A stretch of 18,657 nt of DNA from a virus. Lineage: Duplodnaviria > Heunggongvirae > Uroviricota > Caudoviricetes. Made by a program: the position numbers and the translations under genes. The notes beneath the pieces are model-generated. The model worked only from the letters and a program-made list of their open reading frames with translations. It was not told the origin of the DNA and searched no databases. The stretch spans positions 1 to 18,657 of IMG/VR virus record IMGVR_UViG_2529293015_000004; one strand, given 5' to 3'. This document shows positions 124 through 13,922 of this stretch, in pieces; the first letter of the stretch is position 1, and each line of letters starts with the position of its first letter.

Positions 124-1236
124 TTATTCAGCCGCCACCGGTTTTAACAAGCCAGCATCGAGCAGTTTACGCGTCAACCACTGCTGGCCTTTACCCGTTA
201 ATTGAGGCGTCAACCGTATCTGGTAGCCATCTTCATCATCCAGCACCACTTCTTTCACCGTGAAATACCCCGCGGTGATGTACTGCTGGAACGGCACATT
301 TTTACGTCCGCCGGACGCAATCAGGATGCCGTTCTCCCGTAACCAGGCAAACAGCGCGTTTTGCTTAAGTCCAACAACCTTTGCAAAATTCCCAATCAGG
401 ATCCCTTTAGCTACTGATACCCGGTCGGCAAAATCGACTTTAGGAGCGGCGGCCACCAGCTGCTGATTTAGCTGGTGGGCTTTCTGTTCCAGAAGCTGCT
501 TTTGTTCAGCCAGTTCGGCAGCCAGGCGCAGAGCTTCTGGAAGCGTCTGGGGGATTGCAACCGGTTGCTGTTCTTTTTGCCGGAAGTAGCTGTCTTCCAG
601 TTTTTCAAAGAATGCCCATGCTTCATTTGTGTCCACGATCTTAGACATGCGTGCAGCGCCGCGCTCTGTCCAGAGTGTAAGGCTTCTGGCGTTCTTACCA
701 ACAGAGTAACTTCCGGTTACTCTGTTCTTAAATTCTCTTAATTTTAAACCAGTTAGAAGAAAGTAATGCTTACCTTCTTCAAAGCGGTCAAGGTTGCGAG
801 ACAAATTGTTACGAATATTGGCTTCATCGACCCCATACCCTCTAGCAAGAGTTTCGGTTGTCACGACACGTACTCCCTGCCATTCCAGAACGGGAATTTC
901 ATCCGGCTGATTCTGAACAACCACCAGTTCCGATTCCTGAACTGAAGGTGCATAAATTTTTTCTGATTTAACGTTAGTTGCTTTCATTCTGTGTGCCTCC
1001 TTGCGTGCTTCGGCTGCGACGGTTGCGTAATTCAGATGCCCCTGTTCGAGCAGGTATTCGCGGATATCAGACAGCAGGATACGGTGAACCGCGTTCTTGT
1101 CCTTTCTCCGGTAAAGTTGTTTGGTGATCATGAAGTAGTTGGCAATAACGCCAGGTATATCCCTGGTACTGATACAGGCAGTGTGCTGTTCAATTGCCTC
1201 GATCATCTCTTCACGGGTAACTAACGATGTTCTCAT
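124..1236 (-). CDS. ant: Phage antirepressor (370 aa), KilAC-type C-terminal domain; Ant1-like
   Basis: 370-aa ORF; C-terminal region (...NVPFQQYITAGYFTVKEV...KGQQWL) resembles the antirepressor KilAC domain; central DNA-binding-like region; start ATG overlaps the stop of the upstream 73-codon gene (ATGA); size matches P1 Ant1 as recalled. Confidence 0.6.
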   Translation of the reverse strand: MRTSLVTREEMIEAIEQHTACISTRDIPGVIANYFMITKQLYRRKDKNAVHRILLSDIREYLLEQGHLNYATVAAEARKEAHRMKATNVKSEKIYAPSVQESELVVVQNQPDEIPVLEWQGVRVVTTETLARGYGVDEANIRNNLSRNLDRFEEGKHYFLLTGLKLREFKNRVTGSYSVGKNARSLTLWTERGAARMSKIVDTNEAWAFFEKLEDSYFRQKEQQPVAIPQTLPEALRLAAELAEQKQLLEQKAHQLNQQLVAAAPKVDFADRVSVAKGILIGNFAKVVGLKQNALFAWLRENGILIASGGRKNVPFQQYITAGYFTVKEVVLDDEDGYQIRLTPQLTGKGQQWLTRKLLDAGLLKPVAAE

Positions 1237-1454
1237 AGTCCCTCCTGAGCAGAAGCGTTAACAGGGAGGCACCAGTAACTGAGAGAATTGCGTGAATCAG
1301 TGGAAAAACGGGCAGAGAAAATACATGGGGCGTCAGGAAGCTGAGAACGTGCCTCATCTTCTGTCGGTGCAATAACGAAGTGATAGTGACGTTTTTGGCA
1401 GGAGTAAAAGCGCCAGATAAATTCAGGATGAGCAGGGGTAGGGATAGTAGCCAC
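1233..1454 (-). CDS. icd: Small protein (73 codons, GTG start) translationally coupled to ant; Icd-like by size and position
   Basis: GTG start 8 nt downstream of AGGAGG; stop overlaps the ant start; 73 codons matches P1 Icd as recalled. An alternative 81-codon TTG-start frame (1211-1456) overlaps, so the frame choice is not certain. Confidence 0.4.
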   Translation of the reverse strand: MATIPTPAHPEFIWRFYSCQKRHYHFVIAPTEDEARSQLPDAPCIFSARFSTDSRNSLSYWCLPVNASAQEGL

Positions 1455-1479
1455 AATGGCAGCCTCCTTTTGCTAATTT

Positions 1480-1570
1480 AAGGAGCTACCGCGTGAGGTC
1501 TCAATCTCAATGGCGGTAGCACTGACTGGGTTGAGACTACCGGCGCAAAAGGGAACCGGCCTGCCTTTCG
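1480..1570 (-). ncRNA. Structured leader upstream of icd/ant with antisense elements; candidate c4-like antisense RNA
   Basis: Nested inverted repeats (gctaccgc 1485-1492 / gcggtagc 1513-1520; ggtctcaatc 1495-1504 / ttgagac 1531-1537); 1545-1566 (gcaaaagggaaccggcctgcc) is near-complementary, in the transcript, to the icd ribosome-binding region (1460-1475); a second direct copy of ggtctcaatc lies at 1687-1696. Boundaries are approximate. Confidence 0.3.
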
Positions 1571-1639
1571 GCAGCCCAGCCAGCACTACCATTGATCTCT
1601 GAGCTAAACGCTACGTATGGCTGTGCGATGGCATGACAC

Positions 1640-1663
1640 AAAAAAAAGACGCTTTTGGCGTCT
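1640..1663 (-). terminator. Rho-independent terminator downstream of pacB
   Basis: On the minus strand: stem agacgc/gcgtct with 5-nt loop, followed by a run of 8 U (complement of A8 at 1640-1647). Confidence 0.5.
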
Positions 1664-1794
1664 GTGTCGCCTTTTGCATTATCCGGGGTCTCAATCCCGG
1701 CACCCATTTTAATGAGGTGCCTGATAAGCATAAACCGAAAATGCCTCAAGGCGCAAGAGGTCAGGTTCAATGTAACATCGGCAGTTAAAAAACA

Positions 1795-1811
1795 CAATTT
1801 ATTAGAGCAAA
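1795..1811 (-). promoter_or_regulatory. C1-type operator-like site (15/17 to ATTGCTCTAATAAATTT) at the pacB stop, upstream of the antirepressor module
   Basis: Plus strand reads caatttattagagcaaa, which is the reverse complement of the consensus with two edge mismatches. Confidence 0.45.
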
Positions 1812-1814
1812 TAT

Positions 1815-3299
1815 TCATTCATTAAGCCATGCCAGAGCTTCATCAACCTGCGCTTCGTCTTCGACGCTAAGCACTTCATCCTGGGGAACATAATCCGCCA
1901 GCATAGCGAAACAATATGTATCCCAATGGTCTGGTGAGTGCAGGTTGAGTTTTTTCTTCATATCCTCCTTACTCATCACCTTCCATTGACCTGCGGAGTT
2001 AATCCCTACAGGGATTTTCGACGCTTCCTCAATAGTTTCATTACCCTTATCCAGTCTCATACGACCAGATTTTACGGCCTCTGCGGCTTGAACGTTGGCA
2101 TAAGCACGTTTATCAAAGTACAGGCTCTTATCTTCACGGCTATGCATCTTTTTACCCCAGCGTATACGCTGTACGGTAATACCATAATACTCGTACATCA
2201 GATCCGCCGTTGCTTTACCCAGGCCATCGCCGTCTATCGCTATGGTGATATTTGGGAATCGCTCAGGATTACATTCTGCGAAAATTTTGGCGGCAAGCTG
2301 CGTTTCTGTAACGTCTGTGTATTCCAGCATTCGATAGTTGATTACACGGCGTTTATTTCGCTGGCCGGACACCATCATGATATTGATAACGGACTTATCC
2401 CGTCCCGTACCACCAGCAACGTCCACACATGCAAGCCAGCCCCATCCTTTGGCAATCTTGACTTTCCGCCGCGTTGCGCGTTCAACCTCATCACGTCCAA
2501 GAAGGAAGCCATCCTGTGATTTAGGGAATAGGCCGCGTACCTTAATCATGTACATAGGGTTATCACGCCCGCCGTACTCCGCCAGCTTCATTTTGATAAA
2601 TGCTGGCGTTACCAGCGGTGATTCCTCACTGTTAAGCGTGATCGCCGTATAAACGCCATCAGGGTTACCAGGACGCTTGGCCAGTTTATGGTGTGTATCG
2701 TAGAAATAGCCGCTTGGGCGTGTAGGCTGTGACAGCAATAAGATGCGGTTATCCTGTCCAGTAAGAGCACCGGTGATGATACCGAAAGCTCTATCACTGA
2801 CACCGGAGGCTTCATCGATAATATACAGAAGATGATCTGCGTGTTCACCGGCGAGAGCTTCTTCACTTCCCAGACGAAAGCCCTTCGGTACTACAGTCCA
2901 TACACCTTTACCAGTAACCTCATAGAAAGCGGTTTCTGTCAGAACAAAATAATCAGCAAGCCATGGGAAACGGCTGGTGGCAGTAGCCCAGTTTATCTTG
3001 ATGTACTTGAATATACCGGTCATTACCTGCTGAATTTTGTTCGCAACGATAATAGCGCGGGCACCGGGATACATGATTATGAACAACATGATCATGATAG
3101 AAGTCATGTCTGATTTCCCGGTACCGTGACCAGACGAAACAGATGTCTTGCTACCCTGTTCCTGCACAGACTCAATAATCAGATCCTGCTGCCAGGTAGG
3201 TGTTTTGCCGAACAAAACATCAGCGGCCGCAATCCAGTCATAACGATATAGCGCCACCAGCTCGCGCCAACGTGGATCCGTTACGCAACTTCTGGCCAT
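1815..3299 (-). CDS. pacB: Terminase large subunit (PacB-like, 494 aa)
   Basis: 494-aa ORF immediately downstream of and overlapping pacA (ATGA at 3299); position and size match P1 PacB as recalled; no terminase motifs were individually verified. Confidence 0.8.
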
Positions 3300-6373: not shown

Positions 6374-6754
6374 CTACTCCGCAGAACCATACAATCTACG
6401 TAACGTGTCGGCGACAGAAGATACAGATATCTCTCCGGTCGCAGCCTCTACGGTAAGGTCTGCCAGTTCAGGTGAATCAAATACCTGCACCCCATTACGG
6501 CGTAGAAATAGCAGCGCACTGTTTAGCGCGGTACGCTTATTGGCATCATTGAATATATGCCCTCTCGCTGTAGCCACCAGGTAGGTGGCAGAGACTTCGA
6601 AAAGGTCGGTGATCTCTTCGTAGGCAACTCTGGCCTGAACTCTCCCGATAATGGCCTCTGCCCTACCCGGATCTGACATTCCCGGCAGGCCGCCGTAGCG
6701 GCTTATATTCGCATCATGAAGCGCAATAAGTTCTTCCGGTGATATATGCCTCAT
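6374..6754 (-). CDS. doc: Doc toxin (Fic/Doc family kinase), 126 aa
   Basis: 126 aa with the Doc/Fic motif HIFNDANKR; immediately downstream of and overlapping the 73-aa Phd-like gene; sequence is recognised as essentially P1 Doc (from memory). Confidence 0.9.
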
Positions 6755-6975
6755 TATCGGTTAACCAGTTCCTTGTTGGTGGAGTCCAGGGTGTCAAACA
6801 GGGATGCAAATTCAGCATCCAGCGCCGCTTTTTTGTAGGCTTCGAAAGTAGCCTTGCTGACAATTACTGCTGGCTCACGGCCTCTGCGGGTGATTTCAAC
6901 CTCTTCCCCGGCCTCAACATTGTTGAGCACTTCAGAAAGATTGCCGCGCGCGGTACGGAAGTTAATGGATTGCAT
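6754..6975 (-). CDS. phd: Phd antitoxin, 73 aa
   Basis: 73-aa [44 protein letters not shown]..., recognised as Phd; GAGG Shine-Dalgarno 6 nt upstream; stop overlaps doc start. Confidence 0.85.
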
Positions 6976-6984
6976 AAATACCTC

Positions 6985-7012
6985 GTGTACTCGTTATGTG
7001 TACACAATTATA
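6985..7012 (-). promoter_or_regulatory. phd-doc promoter/operator: -10 TATAAT (rev-comp of 7007-7012) followed by palindrome TGTGTACACA (6997-7006) and a GTGTAC half-site (6985-6990)
   Basis: Perfect 10-bp palindrome between the -10 hexamer and the Shine-Dalgarno, a typical autorepression operator position. Confidence 0.45.
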
Positions 7013-7151
7013 AACTTCACAGGCATAAAGCACCAGCACTTTGCGGCTTAACAAAACTCCAGGCAGGTCATTCATAGCCTAATGTCTGAACTGTTAAAGC
7101 CACCAAGTTGTTGTAGAATCACATCCAATTACATAAGCCTGAAATAAGTGG

Positions 7152-8714
7152 ATGAAAATGACAAGTATTCAACAACGTGCAGAGCTTCATCGTCAAATCT
7201 GGCAAATTGCTAACGATGTCAGGGGTTCGGTCGATGGATGGGATTTTAAGCAATACGTTCTGGGCGCACTTTTCTACCGTTTTATCAGCGAAAATTTTTC
7301 CAGCTATATTGAAGCCGGTGATGACAGTATCTGTTATGCGAAACTGGATGACAGCGTAATTACTGATGACATTAAAGACGATGCCATCAAAACCAAAGGC
7401 TACTTCATCTATCCAAGCCAGCTTTTCTGCAACGTAGCTGCGAAAGCAAATACCAATGACAGACTGAATGCAGATTTAAACAGTATCTTCGTTGCTATCG
7501 AAAGTTCTGCTTACGGTTATCCTTCAGAAGCTGACATCAAAGGTTTGTTTGCTGATTTCGATACCACCAGTAACCGCCTGGGTAACACCGTTAAAGATAA
7601 AAATGCCCGCCTGGCTGCGGTTCTGAAAGGGGTTGAAGGGTTAAAACTTGGTGACTTCAACGAACATCAGATTGACCTGTTCGGTGATGCCTATGAGTTC
7701 CTGATTTCTAACTATGCGGCAAATGCCGGTAAGTCAGGCGGTGAGTTCTTTACACCGCAGCACGTCTCTAAGCTGATTGCACAACTGGCTATGCACGGGC
7801 AGACCAGCGTTAACAAAATCTACGACCCGGCAGCGGGTTCCGGCTCACTGTTGTTGCAGGCGAAAAAACAGTTTGATAACCACATCATCGAAGAAGGCTT
7901 TTTCGGTCAGGAAATCAACCATACGACCTATAACCTGGCGCGTATGAACATGTTTTTGCACAATATCAACTACGACAAGTTTGATATCAAGCTGGGTAAT
8001 ACACTGACTGAGCCGCACTTCAGAGATGAAAAACCGTTTGACGCCATCGTATCTAACCCACCGTATTCGGTGAAATGGATTGGCAGCGATGACCCGACGC
8101 TGATTAACGATGAACGTTTTGCCCCGGCTGGCGTTCTGGCCCCCAAATCCAAAGCTGACTTTGCGTTTGTACTACATGCGCTGAACTATCTTTCGGCCAA
8201 AGGTCGTGCTGCGATTGTCTGCTTCCCGGGTATTTTTTACCGTGGCGGCGCAGAGCAGAAAATCCGTCAGTATCTGGTCGATAATAACTATGTCGAAACC
8301 ATAATTTCACTGGCACCGAACCTGTTCTTTGGCACCACCATTGCAGTAAACATTCTGGTGCTGTCTAAGCATAAAACGGATACCAAAGTTCAGTTTATTG
8401 ACGCCAGCGAACTGTTCAAAAAAGAGACTAACAACAATATCCTGACCGACGCCCATATCGAACAGATTATGCAGGTATTTGCCAGCAAGGAAGATGTTGC
8501 TCATCTGGCGAAATCTGTCGCGTTTGAAGCCGTTGTAGCGAATGACTATAACCTGTCGGTGAGCAGTTATGTGGAAGTGAAAGATAACCGCGAAATTATC
8601 GATATTGCTGAGCTGAATGCGGAACTGAAAACCACGGTCAGCAAAATCGACCAGTTGCGTAAAGATATTGATGCGATTGTAGCTGAAATTGAAGGCTGCG
8701 AGGTGCAGAAATGA
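7152..8714 (+). CDS. hsdM: Type I R-M DNA methyltransferase subunit HsdM (520 aa)
   Basis: AdoMet motif [10 protein letters not shown] and catalytic NPPY (VSNPPYS); stop overlaps the hsdS start (ATGA at 8711-8714). Confidence 0.9.
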
Positions 8715-9913
8715 GCGAGTTAAGTTATCTGGAAAAATTGCTGGATGGGATTGAGGTTGAGTGGAAAACACTAGGCAGTATAGCTGAACTAAAGCGAGGC
8801 ACATCAATTACAAAAAAAGATGTTATTGATGGAACCATCCCCGTAGTCGCTGGCGGACGTACACCAGCTTATTATCATAATACTAGTAATCGCGACGGAC
8901 AAACAATTGTTATCGCAGGTTCTGGTGCGTATGCGGGATTCGTTAGTTGGTGGGAGGAACCAATTTTCGTATCGGATGCATTTACTGTAAAACCTCATAA
9001 TATTTTGTTACCACGATATTGCTATCATTTTTTGATGAATATGCAACAACAACTCCATGAGTTTAAGAGTGGTGGTGGTGTTCCGCATGTTTATCCACGT
9101 GATGTATCACCTATTTTGATACCAATCCCCTGCCCGGATACCCCAGAAAAATCCCTTGCCATCCAGTCTGAAATCGTGCGGATTCTGGATAAATTTACTG
9201 CACTTACCGCTGAGCTTACCGCTGAGCTTAACATGCGTAAAAAACAGTACAACTACTATCGTGACCAGTTGTTGAGTTTTAAAGAGGGTGAGGTTGAGTG
9301 GAAGACTTTGGGGGAAATTGGAGATTTTACATATGGATATGCAGCCAAAGCCATGGATTCAGGAGATGCCCGTTTCGTGAGAATTACTGACATAAATAAA
9401 GACGGGAAGCTATCGAAAGAAAACCCAATGTACGTTGAATTAAATGAGGAAAATGAGAAATATACCTTAGACAAAAATGATTTACTCATGGCAAGAACTG
9501 GGGCAACCTTTGGTAAAACAATGATTTTTGAAGAAGATTATCCAGCAGTATACGCTGGTTTTTTAATAAAGTTGAACCTAAATAAAACGATTATTAATGC
9601 CAAATATTACTGGCACTTTGCACAAAGTGATTTTTTTTGGGAACAGGCTAATAAATTAGTATCTGGTGGTGGGCAACCACAGTTTAATGCTAATGCACTG
9701 AAACAAGTCAGAGTACCTATTCCATACCCATCTCACCCTCAAAAATCTTTAGACGAACAGGGGCGTATTGTGGATATTCTGGATAAGTTTGATGCAATCG
9801 CAGCTTCCATCACCGAAGGTCTCCCGCGTGAAATCGAGTTGCGCCAGAAACAATACGAGTACTATCGTGATTTACTGTTCAGTTTCCCAAAACCTGAAAC
9901 TGTCAGTAATTAA
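8711..9913 (+). CDS. hsdS: Type I R-M specificity subunit HsdS (400 aa), two target-recognition domains
   Basis: Duplicated conserved regions (ILDKF...[15 protein letters not shown] and ILDKF...[15 protein letters not shown]); repeated EVEWKTLG at the start of each half; central TAELTAEL repeat. Confidence 0.85.
9203..9226 (+). repeat. Two tandem copies of 12-bp unit CTTACCGCTGAG (plus a 4-nt partial third copy to 9230) in the hsdS central conserved region, encoding LTAE-LTAE
   Basis: Read directly: cttaccgctgag cttaccgctgag ctta. Confidence 0.85.
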
Positions 9914-10034
9914 TTGACCGTTGCTACCGACCGGGCCACCTTAACATCCGGTCTGTATATAGACTATTTTTTACGCGCCGGAAGTCACTCTTAACGCCCT
10001 TCCGGCCCTTGCCAGACGGCACAAAGGATGCGCT

Positions 10035-13000
10035 ATGACTCATCAGACACACACCATTGCTGAATCCAATAACTTTATCGTCCTTGATAAGTACATCAAA
10101 GCTGAGCAAACAGGCGACAGCTATCAGAGCGAATCGGACCTGGAACGTGAACTAATTCAGGACCTGCGGAATCAGGGCTATGAATTTATACCCGTAAAAT
10201 CACAGTCAGCGATGCTGGCCAACGTTCGGGAACAGCTTCAGAACCTCAATGGTGTGGTGTTTAATGACAGCGAGTGGCGGCGTTTCACGGAGCAATATCT
10301 GGACAACCCGAGTGATGGTATTCTGGATAAAACCCGTAAAATCCATATCGACTATATCTGCGACTTTATTTTTGACGACGGGCGTCTTGAGAACATCTAT
10401 CTGATCGATAAAAAGAATCTCATGCGCAACAAAGTGCAGATTATCCAGCAGTTTGAACAGGCAGGTTCTCACGCTAACCGTTATGACGTAACTATCCTGG
10501 TTAATGGCTTGCCTCTGGTACAAATCGAACTGAAAAAGCGCGGCGTGGCGATTCGTGAGGCTTTCAACCAGATACATCGTTACAGTAAAGAGAGTTTTAA
10601 CAGCGAAAATTCCCTGTTTAAATATCTGCAACTGTTTGTCATTTCTAATGGCACCGATACCCGTTACTTTGCCAACACCACAAAGCGCGATAAAAATAGT
10701 TTTGACTTCACCATGAACTGGGCGAAATCAGACAACACGCTGATTAAAGACCTCAACGACTTTACCGCTACCTTTTTCCAGAAACATACTCTGCTGAATG
10801 TTCTGGTGAACTACAGCGTGTTTGACAGTAGTCAGACGCTACTGGTGATGCGACCGTACCAGATTGCAGCTACCGAACGAATCTTATGGAAAATCAACAG
10901 CTCCTATAAAGCGAAAAACTGGTCTAACCCCGAAAGCGGTGGCTTTATCTGGCACACCACTGGTTCCGGTAAAACACTGACCAGCTTTAAAGCCGCGCGT
11001 CTGGCAACTGAACTGGACTTTATTGATAAAGTCTTCTTCGTGGTCGACAGGAAAGACCTCGATTACCAGACGATGAAGGAATATCAGCGTTTTTCGCCAG
11101 ATAGTGTTAACGGCTCGGAAAATACAGCAGGTCTTAAACGAAATCTGGATAAGGACGATAACAAAATTATCGTCACCACTATTCAGAAACTTAATAACCT
11201 GATGAAAGCAGAAAGCGACCTGCCTGTATACAATCAGCAAGTGGTGTTTATATTTGATGAATGCCACCGCAGCCAGTTTGGAGAAGCGCAGAAAAACCTG
11301 AAGAAGAAATTCAAACGCTATTATCAGTTTGGTTTTACCGGCACACCTATTTTCCCGGAAAACGCTTTAGGCTCAGAAACAACCGCCAGCGTATTTGGTC
11401 GTGAATTGCATTCGTATGTAATTACCGATGCGATTCGTGACGAAAAAGTGCTCAAATTCAAGGTGGACTACAACGATGTGCGGCCACAGTTTAAGTCTTT
11501 AGAGACAGAAACTGACGAGAAAAAACTGAGTGCGGCTGAAAATCAGCAGGCGTTTCTTCATCCCATGCGTATTCAGGAAATCACGCAATATATCCTGAAC
11601 AACTTCCGCCAGAAAACCCACCGTACTTTCCCTGGTTCCAAAGGTTTTAATGCCATGCTGGCAGTAAGCAGCGTGGATGCTGCAAAAGCCTATTATGCGA
11701 CGTTTAAACGGTTACAAGAGGAAGCCGCTAATAAATCGGCTACCTATAAACCGCTGCGTATTGCGACAATCTTCTCCTTTGCCGCCAATGAAGAACAAAA
11801 TGCCATTGGTGAAATTTCCGATGAAACTTTTGATACCAGCGCAATGGACAGCAGTGCTAAAGAGTTTCTGGACGCTGCAATTCGTGAATATAACAGCCAT
11901 TTTAAAACTAACTTTAGCACCGACAGTAACGGTTTTCAGAACTACTATCGTGATTTAGCCCAGCGGGTTAAAAATCAGGATATCGATCTGCTAATTGTCG
12001 TGGGGATGTTCTTAACCGGCTTCGATGCTCCAACATTGAACACGCTATTCGTCGATAAAAACTTACGTTATCACGGCCTGATGCAGGCATTTTCCCGCAC
12101 TAACCGCATTTATGACGCCACTAAAACCTTCGGTAATATCGTCACTTTCCGGGATCTGGAACGCTCAACTATTGATGCCATAACGCTGTTTGGTGACAAA
12201 AACACCAAAAATGTGGTGTTAGAAAAGAGTTATACAGAGTATATGGAAGGCTTTACTGATGCTGCTACAGGTGAAGCTAAACGCGGCTTCATGACAGTAG
12301 TTTCAGAACTGGAACAACGGTTCCCTGACCCTACCAGTATTGAAAGTGAAAAAGAGAAGAAAGACTTCGTTAAACTGTTTGGCGAATACCTGCGTGCCGA
12401 GAACATCCTGCAAAACTATGATGAATTTGCCACGCTAAAAGCCCTGCAACAAATCGATCTTAGCGATCCTGTTGCGGTAGAAAAATTCAAAGCAGAACAT
12501 TATGTGGATGATGAAAAGTTCGCTGAATTGCAAACAATTCGTCTCCCTGCTGATCGCAAGATTCAGGATTATCGTTCTGCCTATAACGATATTCGCGACT
12601 GGCAGCGCCGTGAGAAAGAAGCTGAGAAAAAAGAGAAATCAACCACTGACTGGGATGACGTAGTTTTTGAGGTCGATTTGCTGAAGTCTCAGGAAATAAA
12701 CCTGGATTATATCCTTGGACTGATTTTCGAACACAACAGACAAAATAAAGGCAAGGGCGAAATGATCGAAGAGGTCAAACGCTTAATTCGTTCAAGTCTA
12801 GGGAACCGTGCTAAAGAGGGCCTGGTGGTCGATTTTATTCAGCAAACGAACCTGGATGATTTACCGGACAAAGCCAGCATCATTGACGCATTCTTTACGT
12901 TTGCTCAACGCGAACAGAAACGTGAAGCAGAAGCATTGATAAAAGAAGAAAATCTCAATGAAGAGGCGGCGAAACGCTATATTCGCACATCTTTAAAACG

Positions 13001-13151
13001 CGAATACGCCACCGAAAATGGTACAGGATTAAATGATACATTACCAAAACTTAGTCCGTTAAATCCGCAATATAAAACGAAAAAACAGACGGTTTTCCAG
13101 AAAATCGTCTCGTTTATTGAGAAGTTTAAAGGCGTAGGCGGAAAAATATAG
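10035..13151 (+). CDS. hsdR: Type I R-M restriction subunit HsdR (1038 aa)
   Basis: N-terminal PD-(D/E)xK-like region ([19 protein letters not shown]); helicase motifs [32 protein letters not shown]; separated from hsdS by 121 bp, consistent with its own promoter. Confidence 0.9.
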
Positions 13152-13230
13152 CCCAATTCGTGTTTTTCTTGCGGGTTCTTAATTAAACCCGCAAGAGCTC
13201 GTGGGGTTCCAAATGGCTAATATACTCCCC

Positions 13231-13317
13231 TTACCCATGCGCGACGATGCCGCCAAAAGTGATAGAGAACAGCCAGAAATAGATCGCGGCCATAATGATT
13301 TTGAATGCCGTGTTCAT
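13231..13317 (-). CDS. Candidate small hydrophobic peptide (28 aa, MNTAFKIIMAAIYFWLFSITFGGIVAHG)
   Basis: ATG preceded by AGGAG at 8-nt spacing; single predicted transmembrane-like helix; operator-like site and promoter-like elements ~85 bp upstream; below the ORF-track size cut-off. Confidence 0.3.
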   Translation of the reverse strand: MNTAFKIIMAAIYFWLFSITFGGIVAHG

Positions 13318-13345
13318 ATTTTCAGCTCCTGTGATTGATTGGATA

Positions 13346-13376
13346 CATGCCGCGTCTTGCGGCATGTTTTTATTTT
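13346..13376 (+). terminator. Rho-independent terminator (stem catgccgc/gcggcatg, loop gtctt, then tttttatttt); probably ends the hsdR transcript
   Basis: 8-bp perfect stem followed by a T-run on the plus strand, ~195 bp after the hsdR stop; lies in the 5' leader of the minus-strand peptide ORF. Confidence 0.5.
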
Positions 13377-13399
13377 CACTTTCTCTGTTTTAAAAATCA

Positions 13400-13416
13400 A
13401 GATTTATTAGGGCAAT
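13400..13416 (-). promoter_or_regulatory. C1-type operator-like site (15/17) overlapping the stop of the HAD-like gene, upstream of the small peptide ORF
   Basis: Plus strand agatttattagggcaat; on the minus strand ATTGCCCTAATAAATCT, followed 17 bp later by TAAAAC (possible -10). Confidence 0.4.
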
Positions 13417-13922
13417 TATTGTTGATGGAGAAGCGCATTTTCATACTCCCTGACCATTAACGTAAGTACGCCGTGTCTCCTGAAAACACGCGCCACTTCA
13501 ATCTTATCTTCCAGCGCGAACGCAATTTTACTTAGACCAATTTTCTTAAGGAGATCAATCTTTGCTGGGCCGTCATTTCTGTCATCGGTGGCAGGACGCA
13601 TAGATAGCAAAGGCTCAGCCCCATTTGTTACGTGCTTACGCAACCAAGCTCGTGTTTTATCCCTGGCTATCTCACAGCGCCCGGTTACAAACCAGAGCGT
13701 GTAAATGCCGGACAACTGGCGCACCATATCAATAACTGGAGTGATGGGAGCATCAGTGTCACAGGCAAGGTTAAACTCGTTCCAGTGCTCTGTTAATGCA
13801 CCTTTGCCAGGTGGTGGAAGTAAATGCAGCCTGTCTTCCGTTGCCTCTGATATCGTTCCATCAATATCTACTATGACGATGTACGGACGTTCCTGGTGTG
13901 CGTGTTTATTGAAAATACTCAA
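13416..13922 (-). CDS. HAD-superfamily phosphatase-like protein (168 aa)
   Basis: HAD motif I DIDGT near the N-terminus (IVIVDIDGTISE), downstream T and K motifs (FVTGR, KIDLLKK). Confidence 0.55.
   Translation of the reverse strand: MSIFNKHAHQERPYIVIVDIDGTISEATEDRLHLLPPPGKGALTEHWNEFNLACDTDAPITPVIDMVRQLSGIYTLWFVTGRCEIARDKTRAWLRKHVTNGAEPLLSMRPATDDRNDGPAKIDLLKKIGLSKIAFALEDKIEVARVFRRHGVLTLMVREYENALLHQQ

Follow-up and report, generated by a model that had tools for sequence, protein, structure and literature searches.

Which restriction-modification (R-M) system breaks the run of P1-like genes in this stretch of DNA, is it intact, and what kind of element carries it? The window analyzed here, meaning the whole stretch of 18,657 nt, had been described in an earlier note as holding a type I hsdM-hsdS-hsdR cassette of the type IC (EcoR124-like) family, carried as cargo within a P1-like genome. 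Combining protein family models, structural homologues, pairwise alignment with P1 and a survey of sequenced plasmids, we arrive at the same reading and put its probability at about 0.93: the window holds an intact EcoR124-family type IC system, carried by a P1-like phage-plasmid between phd-doc and pap. This arrangement is already known, and the intact system, while real, is ordinary.

Organization and Integrity of the hsd Genes

Identification of the open reading frames (ORFs) of the window by Pfam and NCBIfam models yielded the three subunits of a type I enzyme:

7152-8714, plus strand: hsdM, N6-adenine methyltransferase subunit of 520 aa (ORF list; TIGR00497, 648 bits)
8711-9913, plus strand: hsdS, specificity subunit of 400 aa (ORF list; Methylase_S in two stretches)
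10035-13151, plus strand: hsdR, restriction and translocase subunit of 1038 aa (ORF list; TIGR00348, 764 bits)

According to the ORF list, gene order and subunit sizes are as had been noted; hsdM and hsdS overlap (by 4 bp), and hsdR stands apart from this pair behind a gap of 121 bp (9914-10034), in the type IC order hsdM-hsdS-hsdR. This order is common to EcoR124I and EcoR124II, the type IC archetype (plasmids R124 and R124/3), whose HsdM and HsdR are equal in length to those of the window (520 and 1038 aa), whereas the EcoR124 HsdS is slightly longer (404 vs. 400 aa). There is no extra gene within the operon in the ORF list, in contrast to EcoprrI, which has the prrC anticodon nuclease inside its operon (PMC3874165).

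Over their full lengths, all three products can be aligned with EcoR124 subunits from PDB, and no truncation or frameshift of hsdM, hsdS or hsdR was found in these alignments, so that the system is complete, as claimed, and passes the check for damaged genes that had been proposed for it. HsdM differs from the EcoR124 HsdM (7bst_D, residues 1-520 on 1-520) in only 5 of 520 residues (99% identity) and keeps both the DPAAGSG and the NPPY motifs. HsdR (residues 1-1038 on 2w00_A 1-1038, 2278 bits) shows 14 differences from the EcoR124 HsdR within the first 1010 residues (identity ~98.6%), and its Pfam domains are HSDR_N, SWI2_SNF2, a T1R_D3-like domain and, at the C-terminus, EcoR124_C (PF12008, 241 bits). 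The HsdR motifs found (D151, E165, K167, QIHRY179, GSGKT310 and DECH408) cover the PD-(D/E)xK, QxxxY and DEAD-box motor elements, and every catalytic motif checked is present in HsdM and HsdR. With type IC membership defined as high sequence identity to EcoR124I HsdM and HsdR, the family assignment is confirmed, and the window system is a near-identical relative of EcoR124.

Insertion Slot and Junctions with P1

The immediate surroundings of the hsd genes, as resolved by domain models and alignment with P1, are as follows:

6374-6754, minus strand: doc of the P1 addiction module (Pfam, NCBIfam, P1 annotation)
6754-6975, minus strand: phd of the P1 addiction module (Pfam, NCBIfam, P1 annotation)
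~7007-7035: Pphd promoter (position by offset from the P1 alignment)
7051/7052: left junction, where P1 homology ends at 7051 (...GCGGCTTAA; pairwise alignment with P1)
13226/13227: right junction, where P1 homology restarts at 13227 (CCCCTTACCC...), corresponding to P1 84482 (alignment)
13416-13922, minus strand: pap of P1, a HAD/PNKP-type phosphatase of 168 aa (Pfam PF25109, P1 annotation)

Thus, the neighbors named in the earlier note, a phd-doc module and a HAD-like phosphatase gene, are the P1 phd-doc and P1 pap genes, and alignment with P1, suggested there as a means of defining the insertion boundaries, has placed these at 7051/7052 and 13226/13227. The cassette between them (7052-13226, 6175 bp) stands in place of the P1 pmgT-pmgU-pmgV-upfMNO-hot-lxr-humD block, and its left junction lies just past the humD stop codon (approximately P1 87969-87970). 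The full order in the window is pacB-pacA-lpa-pdcB-pdcA-doc-phd, hsd, pap-pmgS-pmgR-pmgQ-ppp-pmgP-pmgO. Within the window, every called flanking gene reads from the minus strand and the hsd genes from the plus strand, in line with the opposite orientation reported for them. On alignment the flanking genes proved to be those of P1, with a nucleotide identity of about 95-98%, and outside the cassette the nucleotide identity to P1, P7, RCS47, SJ46 and JL22 is about 95.5-98.4%. The replaced pmgT-humD block has been published as "variable region 8" of P1-like phage-plasmids, which bears out the proposed cargo exchange at a variable region.

A transposon-like or site-specific insertion was considered and rejected, since no direct or inverted repeats of at least 8 bases common to both junctions were found.

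The same slot is recorded in the annotation of P1 itself. In the P1 GenBank record, a misc_feature at 87969-88647 is labeled "upstream of EcoDXXI hsd locus", and two others, "downstream of EcoDXXI hsd locus" (homology over 84263-84482) and "R124/3 sequence downstream of hsdR", share an endpoint at 84482. The right junction of the window coincides with this annotated EcoDXXI and R124/3 flank limit, and the left junction falls within about one base of its counterpart. Indeed, the EcoDXXI and EcoprrI loci, like the window, have hsd flanked by phd-doc on one side and pap-side P1 DNA on the other, phd-doc being the conserved left neighbor of type IC hsd loci, and EcoR124 (R124/3) shares the downstream junction with P1 DNA. 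The window, unlike R124, has complete P1 flanks on both sides; R124 is said to be without most of the downstream P1 DNA, by way of an IS1-associated deletion. Tyndall et al. (1997, Mol Microbiol 23:729) state the linkage between type IC hsd loci and P1 DNA in their title, and P1-like plasmids that have a type I R-M system in place of pmg genes, and no res-mod, have been published. Among these relatives, pSvP1 and Escherichia phage vB_EcoM-673R5 have the backbone, the slot and the absence of res-mod in common with the window and differ from it in their hsdS recognition-domain alleles.

The Source Element

The window is 100% identical to part of an E. coli contig, JH590659.1 (100,856 bp), which continues into c1, coi, cre, mat, lxc, ulx and darB and encodes a DarB of 2255 aa. 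The source element is P1-sized and has the c1 immunity, cre and dar genes expected of a Punavirus, and it may be competent as a phage. The type III res-mod system of P1 is absent from this contig, which runs mat-lxc-ulx-darB. EcoP1I, as that system is called, is likewise R-M cargo in a variable region of a P1-type phage-plasmid, but of another enzyme class and at another locus, between mat and lxc, in agreement with the earlier remark that the type III system of P1 lies elsewhere than the hsd slot. The lineage of the window has type IC in place of the EcoP1I type III system rather than beside it.

It is improbable that the window is instead a P1-derived remnant in some other replicon, as at the R124, EcoDXXI and prr loci. 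Some phd-doc-hsd blocks do have incomplete P1 flanks, many matches belong to chromosomes, conjugative plasmids or large cointegrates, and an hsdS 98.7% identical to that of the window resides on an IncI conjugative plasmid, where P1 DNA stops after pdcA beside an IS5. Against this stand the P1 late and packaging genes, syntenic and unbroken over 7 kb on one side of the cassette and 5.4 kb on the other, the P1 size of JH590659.1 together with its c1-to-darB gene set, and the best full-window matches, which include several plasmids of 85-104 kb beside larger records of 134-187 kb. The 1997 linkage implies a P1-type phage-plasmid with a type IC locus as the natural vehicle, and the window, read as a P1-like phage-plasmid, provides a clean, intact case of one.

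Distribution and Direction of the Exchange

In PLSDB, 501 plasmids have at least 80% of the phd-hsd-pap stretch, 158 have at least 80% of the whole window and 528 have the backbone flank, and the same cassette is carried by the isolated Punavirus vB_EcoM-673R5. The pmgT-humD block of P1 is present at a level of at least 80% in only 4 plasmids, and parts of it are present in 723. The hsd arrangement is therefore far more common than P1's own block at this slot among sequenced P1-like plasmids.

These counts bear on the direction of the exchange. Conceivably, though we consider it rather unlikely, the slot was held earlier, or is held more commonly, by the hsd cassette, and the pmgT-humD block of laboratory P1 is the unusual replacement. 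The ratio of whole hsd arrangements to near-complete P1 blocks (158 vs. 4) speaks for such a reversal, as do junctions that lie at gene ends with no common repeats, a pattern that fits a reciprocal swap of modules, through recombination within the conserved flanks, better than it fits insertion in one direction. The GC content of the cassette, however, is below that of the backbone (43.5% vs. 48-49%, with 49.2% and 47.9% in the two flanks), as would be the case for acquired DNA, and the scattering of parts of the P1 block over so many plasmids implies that many other variants occupy the slot. P1's own block is also low in GC in parts (down to 38.6%), which tempers the argument from the GC content of the cassette.

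Recognition Domains and the Predicted Target

In contrast to the two other subunits, HsdS is conserved only in part: its type IC conserved regions are nearly identical to those of the EcoR124 HsdS in the alignment, and both target recognition domains (TRDs) are divergent. Three features of hsdS are relevant to its specificity:

~8776-9118, plus strand: TRD1, HsdS residues ~22-136, followed by the central conserved region (BLAST break-points against relatives)
~9312-9804, plus strand: TRD2, HsdS residues ~201-365, followed by the conserved C-terminal region (BLAST break-points against relatives)
9206-9229, plus strand: two perfect 12-bp repeats (ACCGCTGAGCTT, twice), encoding TAEL-TAEL (translation and DNA sequence)

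The TAEL motifs are at HsdS residues 166 and 170. In type IC HsdS, the number of TAEL repeats acts as a ruler of spacer length: EcoR124I has two copies and an N6 spacer, and EcoDXXI and EcoprrI, unlike the window allele with its two, have three repeats and N7 spacers (PMC3874165). The two repeats of the window HsdS hence predict a non-specific spacer of 6 bp. Since both TRDs are unlike those of EcoR124I, this HsdS is expected to recognize a sequence other than GAA(N6)RTCG, the target of that enzyme.

The exact match of this HsdS is WP_001293039.1. Its homologues include no named or characterized HsdS, all being entered under the generic name "restriction endonuclease subunit S", and no papers mentioning their accessions were found in a literature search. 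The exact pairing of TRD1 with TRD2 is rare, with matches in three plasmids and one chromosome at 96.6-98.7% identity.

Proposed Function and Coexistence with Dar

By analogy with EcoR124I, HsdS and two HsdM subunits would form an M2S methyltransferase acting on a bipartite target, and addition of HsdR would convert it into an ATP-driven translocating endonuclease cutting unmethylated incoming DNA. We infer that the system is enzymatically active and has a role in defense. In a lysogen, it would guard both host and prophage from other phages and plasmids, with the resident prophage shielded by its own methylation. Elements of this kind exchange the P1 type III system for type I systems of varied specificities and would thereby alter which DNA is accepted by lysogens, a feature of possible relevance for the spread of resistance-bearing P1-like plasmids.

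A conflict between the Dar functions and the resident type I enzyme was considered and rejected, because Dar, as published, works in cis, on packaged DNA, and darB coexists with hsd on JH590659.1; the coexistence anticipated in the earlier note is seen for the genes on this one contig. A literature search returned no report of Dar assayed against type IC enzymes.

Transcription Signals and the State of the System

Scans for promoters and terminators, along with the P1 annotation moved over via alignment, gave four features around hsdR:

9941-9970, plus strand: promoter-like site (TTAACA, 18 nt, TATTTT), a candidate separate hsdR promoter (consensus scan)
13345-13367, plus strand: intrinsic-terminator-like hairpin with T-run, in the P1-derived flank and conserved in P1 (terminator scan)
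13372-13416 region, minus strand: PpmgT promoters, retained from P1 (P1 annotation via alignment)
13400-13416, minus strand: C1 operator Op88, with one base unlike P1 (P1 annotation via alignment)

The density of sites in the promoter scan was not above that of shuffled sequence, which makes the site at 9941-9970 a weak one, and upstream of hsdM no site passed the threshold of the consensus scan. As the scan was not enriched over shuffles, the transcription units, hsdMS and hsdR, are assumed to be those of EcoR124. The conserved hairpin is a candidate terminator, placed to end read-through from hsdR before pap.

The lack of clearly supported promoters in the scan could be taken to mean that the hsd genes survive here as a relic, silent or in part disabled (modification-only or unexpressed, for instance), and such decay might also be read from the nearest phage record, vB_EcoM-673R5, in which hsdM and hsdR are annotated as split fragments, and from IS insertions within the cassette in some PLSDB plasmids. 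We consider this explanation highly improbable for the window, in which the hsd genes are of full length, align with EcoR124 subunits of crystallized and cryo-EM structures and keep their motifs. The 98.6-99% identity of HsdM and HsdR to EcoR124 and the presence of the block in hundreds of plasmids fit purifying selection. Moreover, vB_EcoM-673R5 also has pacA, c1 and darB split, and so many split genes suggest sequencing errors rather than real decay.

The retained PpmgT promoters offer a possible connection to the phage cycle, as they point antisense toward the 3' end of hsdR. Two readings are long shots: that C1-controlled PpmgT transcription runs antisense into hsdR on derepression, which could tie restriction to the lysogenic or lytic state, and that the rare TRD pairing specifies an uncatalogued target. 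In the first case, antisense transcription from PpmgT could, for instance, damp HsdR in lytic growth and let unmodified progeny or transduced DNA escape.

Identity and Integrity of the hsd Genes

The analysis shows that the hsd genes are intact, to which family they belong and where they sit in the genome; for this cassette the earlier note was correct in its observation and largely correct in its interpretation. The positions, sizes, hsdM/hsdS overlap and 121-bp hsdS-to-hsdR gap that it reported are matched exactly in the ORF list, where the overlap measures 4 bp, and gene calls place the plus-strand hsd set among minus-strand neighbors (doc, phd and a phosphatase gene).

Features of the cassette and its borders (window coordinates)
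6374-6754, minus: doc, left neighbor of the cassette
6754-6975, minus: phd, left neighbor of the cassette
7051: left junction, where P1 homology stops (...GCGGCTTAA) just beyond the humD stop codon (pairwise P1 alignment)
7152-8714, plus: hsdM, 520 aa; N6_Mtase and HsdM_N (Pfam), TIGR00497 at 648 bits (NCBIfam)
8711-9913, plus: hsdS, 400 aa; Methylase_S, two stretches
10035-13151, plus: hsdR, 1038 aa; HSDR_N, SWI2_SNF2, T1R_D3-like and EcoR124_C, TIGR00348 at 764 bits
13227: right junction, where P1 homology restarts (CCCCTTACCC...) (pairwise P1 alignment)
13416-13922, minus: HAD/PNKP-type phosphatase (pap), right neighbor of the cassette

All three products align end to end with the EcoR124 subunits, confirming that the genes are complete. 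HsdM (1-520) shows 5 differences from EcoR124 HsdM (7bst_D, 1-520) and keeps the DPAAGSG and NPPY motifs, while HsdR residues 1-1038 align with residues 1-1038 of EcoR124 HsdR (2w00_A; 2278 bits, Protein Data Bank search), with 14 differences counted over the first 1010 aligned residues and with the nuclease residues D151, E165 and K167, QIHRY, the GSGKT Walker A motif and DECH all present. The system is thus more than "type IC-like", as it was initially assigned: it is very closely related to EcoR124, the archetype of type IC. In public annotations the hsdM start is set at 7158 (518 aa); EcoR124 HsdM in solved structures begins two codons earlier (MKMTS..., 520 aa), which corresponds to the ATG at 7152.

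Junctions and Flanks

Outside the cassette, the window is 95.5-98.4% identical to P1, P7, RCS47, SJ46, JL22 and other Punavirus records, in line with the claim of P1-like flanks. The insertion boundaries fall where homology to P1 ends (7051) and resumes (13227), and the cassette therefore spans 7052-13226 (6175 bp), with a GC content of 43.5% vs. 49.2% and 47.9% in the flanks. No repeats of at least 8 bases common to both junctions were found, which fits module exchange via recombination in conserved flanks, not transposition. The P1 record NC_005856 already carries misc_features that mark P1 stretches as homologous to the sequences upstream (P1 87969-88647, 98% identity) and downstream (P1 84263-84482, 96% identity) of the EcoDXXI hsd locus, and to the R124/3 sequence downstream of hsdR (P1 84399-84482, 98% identity); the right junction coincides with the end of the EcoDXXI and R124/3 features at P1 84482, and the left junction lies about 1 base from P1 87969.

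Two small elements were also noted near the right junction. One is a 28-aa hydrophobic ORF (MNTAFKIIMAAIYFWLFSITFGGIVAHG; 13231-13317, minus strand), which has an AGGAG ribosome-binding site and stops 4 nt away from the junction; it is conserved in P1, lying between pap and pmgT, where NC_005856 leaves it unannotated. The other, a strong hairpin (CTTGCGGGTT-cttaatt-AAACCCGCAAG; 13166-13197), lies directly past the hsdR stop, within the cassette, with no T-run on either strand.

Prevalence and Relatives

The hsd-in-P1 arrangement is already known, being documented since 1997, annotated in the GenBank record of P1 and present in hundreds of sequenced plasmids. According to the 1997 abstract of Tyndall et al., the upstream homology reportedly includes functional phd and doc, and the downstream P1 sequence is said to start at one identical place in all systems. 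Of the PLSDB plasmid records, 501 contain at least 80% of phd-hsdMSR-pap; by the same cutoff, 158 contain the entire 18.7-kb window, 528 the pap-to-pmgM backbone flank and only 4 the pmgT-humD block of P1 itself. The P1-like plasmid pSvP1 has a type I R-M system in place of pmg genes (PMC6906374), and in the isolated phage vB_EcoM-673R5 the cassette sits at the corresponding position, with other target-recognition domains (TRDs). The window matches the NCBI contig JH590659.1 (GCA_000242015.1, 100,856 bp) at 100% identity.

Related loci were also seen in other settings. The IncI conjugative plasmid NZ_CP081888.1 bears a 98.7%-identical hsdS plus hsdM and phd-doc-pdcA, its P1 DNA ending past pdcA next to IS5 and metabolic genes; this locus is a modern counterpart of the R124/EcoDXXI-type P1 remnant. 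The Klebsiella phage vB_KpnS_p4727 (PQ492289.1, 110 kb) shows 82.8% identity to the hsd genes at 7158-13143, and the P1 flanks of the window have no match in PQ492289.1, so type IC cassettes travel in another phage-plasmid group as well. HsdR is among the pKpn-group genes listed by Pfeifer et al.

HsdS and Its Predicted Target

Window HsdS (1-400; WP_001293039.1, labelled "restriction endonuclease subunit S") aligns with the full length of EcoR124 HsdS (1-404), but near-identity is confined to the conserved regions (N-terminal, central and C-terminal), and both TRDs are divergent. The central region contains TAEL-TAEL, encoded by two perfect 12-bp repeats (9206-9229); two such repeats specify an N6 spacer (EcoR124I) and three an N7 spacer (EcoR124II, EcoDXXI, EcoprrI) (PMC3874165). 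Because of the two repeats and the divergent TRDs, the target is predicted to be bipartite, its half-sites differing from GAA and RTCG and separated by a 6-bp spacer. The TRD1+TRD2 pairing of this allele is seldom seen (3 plasmids and 1 chromosome, 96.6-98.7% identity), TRD2 by itself is common, and of 5426 complete E. coli genomes, 1279 contain type IC hsdS-like sequence; reassorted TRDs are the usual picture in type IC systems (PMC3874165).

Type III System and Dar Functions

As the earlier note stated, the type III res-mod locus of P1 lies elsewhere, in variable region 1, apart from the hsd slot. The source contig JH590659.1 has the gene order c1-coi-cra-cre ... mat-lxc-ulx-darB and contains no res or mod gene, with nothing between mat and the lxc, ulx and darB genes (L010 14548-21113, outside the window); res-mod is likewise absent from vB_EcoM-673R5. 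Thus, this lineage has a type IC system in place of, not alongside, the type III system. Absence of res-mod was also described for three P1 variants of the pSvP1 study (PMC6906374). The res-mod slot is occupied by a RelA/SpoT-family gene in vB_EcoM-673R5 and by other cargo in two related contigs, L009 and L011, examples being a protein of the YaaC family and a faint match to DUF2971.

JH590659.1 encodes a full-length DarB (2255 aa) together with hsd, and Dar and the type I system therefore coexist, as had been anticipated. Dar proteins are packaged in the virion and act only in cis on co-packaged DNA (PMC12707154). A conflict between Dar and the resident type I enzyme was considered and rejected, since Dar is cis-acting and the resident prophage's own modification would shield it. 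Establishment of type IC enzymes in naive hosts reportedly depends on assembly control, not ClpXP proteolysis (PMC12707154); in the literature searched, we found no report of Dar tested against type IC enzymes.

Proposed Activity and Expression

By homology to EcoR124I, M2S would methylate the bipartite target, and R2M2S would translocate on, then cleave, unmodified DNA. By the same analogy, hsdR is probably transcribed separately from hsdMS; the hsdS-hsdR gap holds a single promoter-like site (9941-9970), in a scan not enriched over chance. A terminator-like hairpin in the P1-derived flank (13345-13367, plus strand) could halt read-through out of hsdR. The P1 PpmgT promoters and C1 operator Op88 are kept at 13372-13416 (minus strand), now directed antisense into hsdR, and we speculate that they may couple restriction to prophage state.

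Antirepressor Module Near c1

Between pacB and c1, where P1 has nothing, lies an antirepressor module (124-1818, minus strand) that encodes an ORF6N+ANT protein of 370 aa, an icd-like ORF of 73 aa and one further small ORF. The source contig has another copy beyond cre in inverted orientation (the two copies compared being L010 9771-11124 and 15090-16752), with arms of 634 and 560 nt that are 91-94% identical. Together the copies form a large inverted repeat around the c1-coi-lox-cre segment, which could permit its inversion.
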